In this document: positions 39,770 to 40,088 of the stretch, piece by piece
Layout of the letters: every line of letters starts with the position of its first letter
Position numbering within the stretch: the stretch's first letter is position 1
NCBI RefSeq assembly: GCF_003334815.1
Contig: NZ_QOWO01000004.1
Reading direction: 5' to 3' (one strand)
DNA from: Escherichia coli
GTDB taxonomy: Bacteria > Pseudomonadota > Gammaproteobacteria > Enterobacterales > Enterobacteriaceae
DNA length: 64,000 bases
Notes under the pieces: generated by a model
Seen by the model: only the letters and a program-made list of their open reading frames with translations
What the model was told of the DNA's origin: nothing
The model's database searches: none
Position numbers and translations under genes: made by a program

Positions 39770-40088
39770 TGAGCTTTCATCCTATGAAATTAATTGCTGT
39801 TAAAAGCATTGGGTACAGAAAATACCCATAGCTCCATACCCGGAGTCAGTTTTTAAAAACTGTTTAAAGAAATGCACAAGTATTGTGATTGATTTTTTAG
39901 TTGTTTTTCTTGATGAGAAGCTGATGCAAAATTCCGTCTTTATAATGAAAATGATGCCAAAGCGAACGACAAGGTTGTAGTTTTCACTACATGTCCATAC
40001 ATAAAATGGGGTAACATTCACGCGCCTGGTAGCGTTACCAACGCTACGCTCAAACATAATGATTCTAATAAAACCTCAGGAGACTACT

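Follow-up and report, generated by a model that had tools for sequence, protein, structure and literature searches.

Intact yejO and the unoccupied IS5K target site in a close wild-type relative of Escherichia coli K-12

Background

In type Va secretion a protein is exported through Sec, its barrel is inserted with the assistance of BAM, and the passenger is then translocated and folds. Among the described proteins that lie closest to YejO of Escherichia coli are Ag43, AIDA-I and TibA. Like them it has a passenger with AIDA-type repeats, joined through a pertactin-like region to a barrel at the C-terminus, though YejO (863 amino acids) is shorter than these self-associating proteins. The structures of the Bordetella proteins Vag8, BrkA and pertactin match the C-terminal half of YejO (residues ~368-863), a likeness that is limited to the junction and the barrel, the passengers being unrelated and the organism different. 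Within the literature searched, no experimental paper on the function of intact YejO was found.

The presence of IS5K within yejO of K-12, a strain polymorphism and a case of pseudogenisation, is already documented. In MG1655 (NC_000913.3) the 1195-bp element occupies 2288919..2290113, is annotated within yejO and follows nucleotide 67 of the coding sequence, in codon 23 of the part that encodes the signal peptide. The gene (b2190) is consequently annotated there as a two-piece pseudogene, with a first fragment of 67 nt (2290114..2290180) and a second of 2525 nt. IS5 has been described as lying inside yejO, gene and element being co-oriented, with an uncharacterised promoter, PyejO, upstream (PMC11677980), while an older annotation gives the gene order as yejO, b2191, yi52_8 (IS5), narP (PMC1174868).

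We report here an analysis of a stretch of 64,000 nucleotides, hereafter the window, from E. coli contig NZ_QOWO01000004.1 (assembly GCF_003334815.1), in which yejO is uninterrupted. An earlier, sequence-only reading of this DNA had placed an IS5 copy between yejO and narP in MG1655 and had proposed that the present strain, which has none there, differs from MG1655 and may have retained a native yejO promoter. We compare the locus with that of K-12 and of other E. coli genomes, describe the architecture of the predicted protein and weigh the explanations that may be offered for the intact gene.

Results and discussion

The yejO gene and the empty IS5K site

The entire window was aligned to positions 2248000..2318000 of NC_000913.3 with their annotation. 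It is colinear with MG1655 2249213..2314366 and gapless apart from the absence of IS5K and of one 113-bp unit, the alignment falling into three blocks:

Window 1..39706, block 1, corresponding to MG1655 2249213..2288918
Window 39703..54541, block 2, corresponding to MG1655 2290114..2304952
Window 53979..63842, block 3, corresponding to MG1655 2304503..2314366

The features of the locus itself are as follows:

36999..37075, plus strand: proL, tRNA-Pro(GGG), the downstream neighbour of yejO (Rfam scan and MG1655 annotation)
37178..39769, minus strand: yejO, an intact 863-codon open reading frame with an ATG start, predicted to encode a type Va (AIDA-I-type) autotransporter
39703..39706, no strand: ATAA, the unoccupied IS5K target, by exactly which 4 bases the BLAST blocks overlap
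39770..40088, no strand: yejO-narP divergent intergenic region, 319 bp, 36% G+C, with no IS
40089..40736, plus strand: narP, response regulator of 215 amino acids (NF007708, E 6.4e-138)

Blocks 1 and 2 skip exactly the annotated IS5K. The ATAA that is present in a single copy in the window flanks the element twice in MG1655 (2288915-2288918 and 2290114-2290117), where the junctions read ...AATATAA/GGAAGGTG... and ...CACCTTCC/ATAACGC... or, in a longer reading, ...GAATATAA/GGAAGGTGCG... and ...GCACCTTCC/ATAACGCTG..., with '/' marking the boundary. Taken together, these junctions and the 4-base overlap of the blocks show that the target duplication consists of the 4 bp ATAA and that the window is the exact unoccupied site. 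MG1655 thus differs in having IS5K, in the same orientation as yejO (PMC11677980), and a duplicated ATAA where the site in the window is empty; the same paper gives CTAA and CTAG for IS5 sites, and the duplication in K-12 yejO is ATAA. The IS5 terminal repeats were sought across the whole window and none was found.

The two MG1655 fragments (67 + 2525 nt) add up to 2592 nt, or 864 codons including the stop, which is the length of the open reading frame in the window, and when they are joined and IS5K is removed they align to the window gene with no base differing. The MG1655 pseudogene b2190 with its IS5K (insH8, b2192) has the same fragment sequence as the window gene, as well as the same upstream spacer and neighbours. 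The product encoded in the window is identical to RefSeq WP_000554226.1, and the DNA is 100% identical to that of strains encoding this protein.

These results bear out the sequence-only reading in its substance and correct it in one particular. The gene is indeed whole and an IS5 copy is indeed present at this locus in MG1655 and absent from the window, but the K-12 element sits inside yejO, at codon 23, and not in the intergenic region. The placement of IS5 in the intergenic region probably stems from the older published gene order cited above.

The yejO-narP spacer

The spacer of the window is free of IS sequence, as had been noted, and no IS5 end occurs anywhere in the window. It had also been supposed that the spacer of K-12 would differ, an identical K-12 spacer being named as the observation that would refute the reading; the alignment found just such identity, positions 39770..40088 of the window matching MG1655 2290181..2290499 over 319 bp at 100%, with the narP start at window 40089 and MG1655 2290500. 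As this upstream DNA is preserved unchanged in K-12, the proposed retention of a native promoter does not separate the two strains. The real contrast is that in the window the upstream region is contiguous with a whole open reading frame, whereas that of K-12 reads into IS5K after 67 nt.

A consensus promoter scan gave no site inside 39770-40088, and a relaxed sigma-70 scan of the spacer on either strand gave 8-9 of 12 matches at best, from which we name no yejO promoter. An AGGA motif lies 10 nt upstream of the yejO ATG. The spacer and the 5' end of yejO have a G+C content of 36-42% in comparison to 51.5% for the whole window; AT-rich DNA is typical of H-NS-silenced loci. An 85-amino acid ATG open reading frame in the spacer (39800..40057, minus strand) is unannotated in MG1655 and in the RefSeq strains examined, and we regard it as probably spurious.

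An Rfam scan of 36500-41000 gave no match within the spacer. It recovered only proL and, beyond narP, two REP-type matches that fell below threshold, both between narP and ccmH (ES036 at 40811-40853 and naRNA4 at 40857-40893); a terminator-like hairpin (40741-40765) directly follows narP.

Compendia of RNA-seq data from K-12 place yejO with the genes of lowest expression (PMC10392735), a result to be read with the caveat that the large fragment is there separated from its own upstream region. Expression of yejO is probably low or conditional.

Strain background

Overall the window and MG1655 share 99.98% identity. We count 13 single-base differences outside the eco-mqo repeat array, and none of the listed mismatches falls between window positions 26388 and 40103, so that neither the coding sequence of yejO nor the 319-bp spacer differs from that of K-12. 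In a three-way comparison with NCTC9100, the best overall relative among those compared (8 positions differ from the window), the window carries the NCTC9100 base rather than that of MG1655 at six of these positions (8497, 15243, 26388, 40103, 40183 and 54579). The agreement of the window and NCTC9100 against MG1655 indicates that the MG1655 alleles are K-12-specific; among them are both of the bases that differ in narP (40103 and 40183), at which the window alleles are shared with wild strains. The remaining seven differences (3703, 7092, 10400, 13309, 17223, 24699 and 44739) are private to the window, MG1655 and NCTC9100 being the same at these positions. The best RefSeq matches to window positions 1-25000 fall slightly under a perfect score, with an estimated ~6 mismatches, so the strain is not itself represented among the complete genomes.

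Two of the private differences, 3703 and 7092, fall in the segments 3692-4951 and 6882-8141 (nupX and psuT), which match one another at 79%. The eco-mqo array (window 53989-54541) is a tandem repeat of a REP-like 113-bp unit in 4.9 copies with 95% matches. Relative to MG1655 the window is one unit short, and most of the apparent single-base differences fall within the array.

At its far end the window enters an insertion sequence. Positions 63843-64000 (158 bp) are 100% identical to the end of IS10/ISVsa5 on R100 and other Tn10 plasmids, and interrupt rcsD, which begins near 62964, after its nucleotide 879 (MG1655 2314366). With a 601-bp query spanning this rcsD/IS10 junction, no complete RefSeq E. 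coli genome gave a match of at least 80% coverage. The 158 bp are all of the element that falls within the window, the second junction and the target duplication lying outside it.

Neither mark of the K-12 lineage, IS5K in yejO or the K-12 SNP alleles over 64 kb, was found in the window. We conclude that the strain is wild-type and very closely related to K-12, and is neither K-12 itself nor a K-12 revertant. The earlier statement that it is not identical to MG1655 is thereby upheld by the absence of IS5K, the missing K-12 alleles and the IS10 end in rcsD.

Distribution of the intact and interrupted alleles

Probes of the IS5K::yejO junctions show how far the interrupted allele extends. Of 5426 complete E. 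coli genomes, 357 contain the whole of a 120-bp probe across the right junction, and 356 the whole of the left-junction probe. Among the matches listed (n=60) all are K-12 laboratory derivatives, including MG1655 sublines, C600, DH5alpha, DH1, J53, RR1, NCM3722 and ER1709. By comparison, 5007 of 5424 genomes have a single match to at least 80% of a 901-bp segment comprising the 5' end of yejO, the spacer and the 5' end of narP, and about 79% of complete genomes have a single match to at least 80% of a 3.9-kb yejO-narP query. Many wild strains, among them ETEC H10407, NCTC86, WG5 and NCTC9100, carry this 3.9-kb stretch with 100% identity. In strains encoding WP_000554226.1 (for example 720632, NCTC9100 and N18-04097), the 3.9-kb DNA, the protein, the order proL-yejO-narP and the 319-bp spacer are the same as in the window; the locus itself is without difference, and it is elsewhere that the window is set apart from these strains, by its private SNPs and by IS10 in rcsD. 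The state found in the window is the norm of the species and that of K-12 a lineage-specific lesion.

In other lineages yejO decays independently. In G749 what is left of the gene is a frameshifted, B2-like remnant of about 0.9 kb, in SCU-171 the gene is cut short next to prophage genes, and in STEC409 IS1A lies inside it; it has also been reported missing from ST131 (PMC5654935). True insertions into the yejO-narP spacer do exist, namely IS2 in N18-04097 and IS1X2 in QDFD216, and SY033 has IS4 between proL and yejO; in these three strains, as in STEC409, the sequence background is otherwise identical. IS1203 and an IS3-family element also occur at the locus in the genome match list. We considered whether the locus is a hot spot for insertion sequences and set this aside; by our own rough estimate, the usual density of IS elements in E. 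coli would by itself yield, over 3.9 kb, at least the handful of insertions seen in ~1400 near-identical genomes.

Architecture of the predicted YejO protein

The modules recognised in the product are, from the N-terminus:

39683..39769, minus strand: predicted Sec signal peptide, codons 1-29, MHQSGSVSLCRSAISVLVATALYSPIALA, with an A-L-A cleavage motif (translation inspected by eye)
38825..39220, minus strand: AIDA repeats of the passenger, residues 184-315 (Pfam PF16168)
38105..38479, minus strand: pertactin-like region at the C-terminal end of the passenger, residues 431-555 (PF03212, E 3.2e-45)
37247..37966, minus strand: outer-membrane beta-barrel translocator, residues 602-841 (PF03797, E 8.8e-45)

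On inspection, the N-terminus (MHQSGSVSLCRSAISVLVATALYSPIALA/ST) has a charged n-region (R11) followed by a hydrophobic core that spans residues 12-26, with A-L-A at 27-29. The Pfam AIDA family PF16168 matches twice, at residues 184-245 (E 7.7e-24) and 257-315 (E 1.5e-21), with weaker AIDA repeats reaching N-terminally to about residue 51, and the TIGR04415 repeat is also recognised in the passenger (E 3.8e-18). In comparison with PDB structures, residues ~48-331 match the passengers of Ag43 and TibA, the matching entries being Ag43 7koh (1e-36), the AidA-I family adhesin 7ko9 and TibA 4q1q. The pertactin structure 1dab matches residues 368-558 and the BrkA barrel 3qq2 residues 582-863. TIGR01414 covers residues 456-863 (E 2.4e-110; 369.5 bits against a cut-off of 16) and, with PF03797, accounts for the C-terminal beta-barrel that had been recognised from the translation, as had the putative signal peptide. 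The protein ends in ...VVWTF, with an aromatic terminal phenylalanine.

Judged by these matches, YejO carries every predicted module of a classical type Va autotransporter of the AIDA-I type. Against the NCBIfam equivalog models it scores 130.7 bits for auto_Ag43 and 73.8 bits for auto_AIDA-I, where the cut-off is 1200 in each case; scores so far under these cut-offs make YejO a paralogous member of the superfamily and an orthologue of neither protein.

By analogy to the family, the product of the intact gene would be exported through Sec and would be made up of four parts, namely the Sec signal peptide, a beta-helical passenger resembling those of AIDA and Ag43, a pertactin-like junction and the C-terminal beta-barrel. 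The barrel would be inserted with the assistance of BAM, and the passenger would be translocated and may fold into a beta-helix on the cell surface, where it might act in the manner of an adhesin. Transcription of yejO would start in the AT-rich 319-bp spacer that it shares with narP.

Origin and significance of the intact allele

That yejO is whole in the window and that its IS5K site is unoccupied are direct observations, and we found no evidence contradicting this genotype. Very probably, the window comes from a strain outside K-12 but very close to it that has the pre-insertion yejO allele, encoding a type Va autotransporter; IS5K would have entered yejO at the ATAA of codon 23 solely in the K-12 lineage, parting 22 codons and the upstream region from the remainder of the gene, while the gene in the window stayed whole. 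The same locus would be expected of a K-12 derivative from which IS5K had been precisely excised, restoring yejO, in that taking IS5K and one ATAA out of the K-12 sequence leaves yejO and a spacer base-identical to those of the window, and the identity to MG1655 over the whole window is 99.98%. Such a derivative should not, however, carry the NCTC9100 allele in place of the K-12 allele at six positions or an eco-mqo array that is one 113-bp unit short; moreover, the IS5K junction is kept in all 60 K-12 derivatives among the matches listed, and precise excision of IS5 is rare. We consider this history highly improbable. Copies of insertion sequences are also classic breakpoints of assembly, and an IS5 repeat copy might have been collapsed or skipped to leave an artefactually intact gene, but we think this very unlikely indeed, given that a clean single ATAA stands in an open frame identical to that of dozens of independently finished genomes and that the same assembly retained the IS10 end in rcsD. 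The window is, in addition, without the K-12 SNP alleles, and IS5K is accordingly not to be expected in it.

A pre-insertion allele in a non-K-12 strain, the reading that we prefer for the genotype, may nevertheless be a silent one, intact yet decaying and functionless, its intactness reflecting only that no disabling event has occurred so far. The independent disruptions in G749, SCU-171 and STEC409 and the absence from ST131 (PMC5654935) are consistent with this, and degradation or loss in several lineages means that the gene may be dispensable or silent. The lack of a good promoter match in the spacer and the AT-richness of the spacer and of the 5' end of yejO point the same way, and K-12 tolerates the loss of yejO, the Keio yejO deletion even serving as a 'wild-type-like' strain (PMC11005336). 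On the other hand, the frame is open over 2592 nt with all of the autotransporter modules scoring strongly, many wild strains have retained the identical protein, and about 79% of complete genomes match the 3.9-kb query over at least 80%. A silent gene seems to us a plausible account, though one that we would not back over its alternatives. The converse proposal, that intact YejO functions in wild strains as a surface adhesin or aggregation factor expressed under certain conditions and that its knock-out by IS5K is a lesion of K-12 domestication, we put forward tentatively and hold to be rather unlikely as it stands.

Conclusions

This work assigns the window to a wild-type near-relative of K-12. 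The finding is of little import, and nothing that was previously untestable becomes testable through it. The exact empty site nevertheless fixes the target duplication of IS5K as ATAA and corrects the common picture, taken from old annotation, that places IS5 between yejO and narP. As the K-12 copy is split within the signal peptide, studies of YejO are better served by a non-K-12 allele. Should intact YejO prove to be a functional surface factor, the loss of yejO would be one of the changes through which K-12 became a poor coloniser and former of biofilms, and the strain described here would be a natural wild-type control, with a yejO locus base-identical to that of K-12 bar IS5K.
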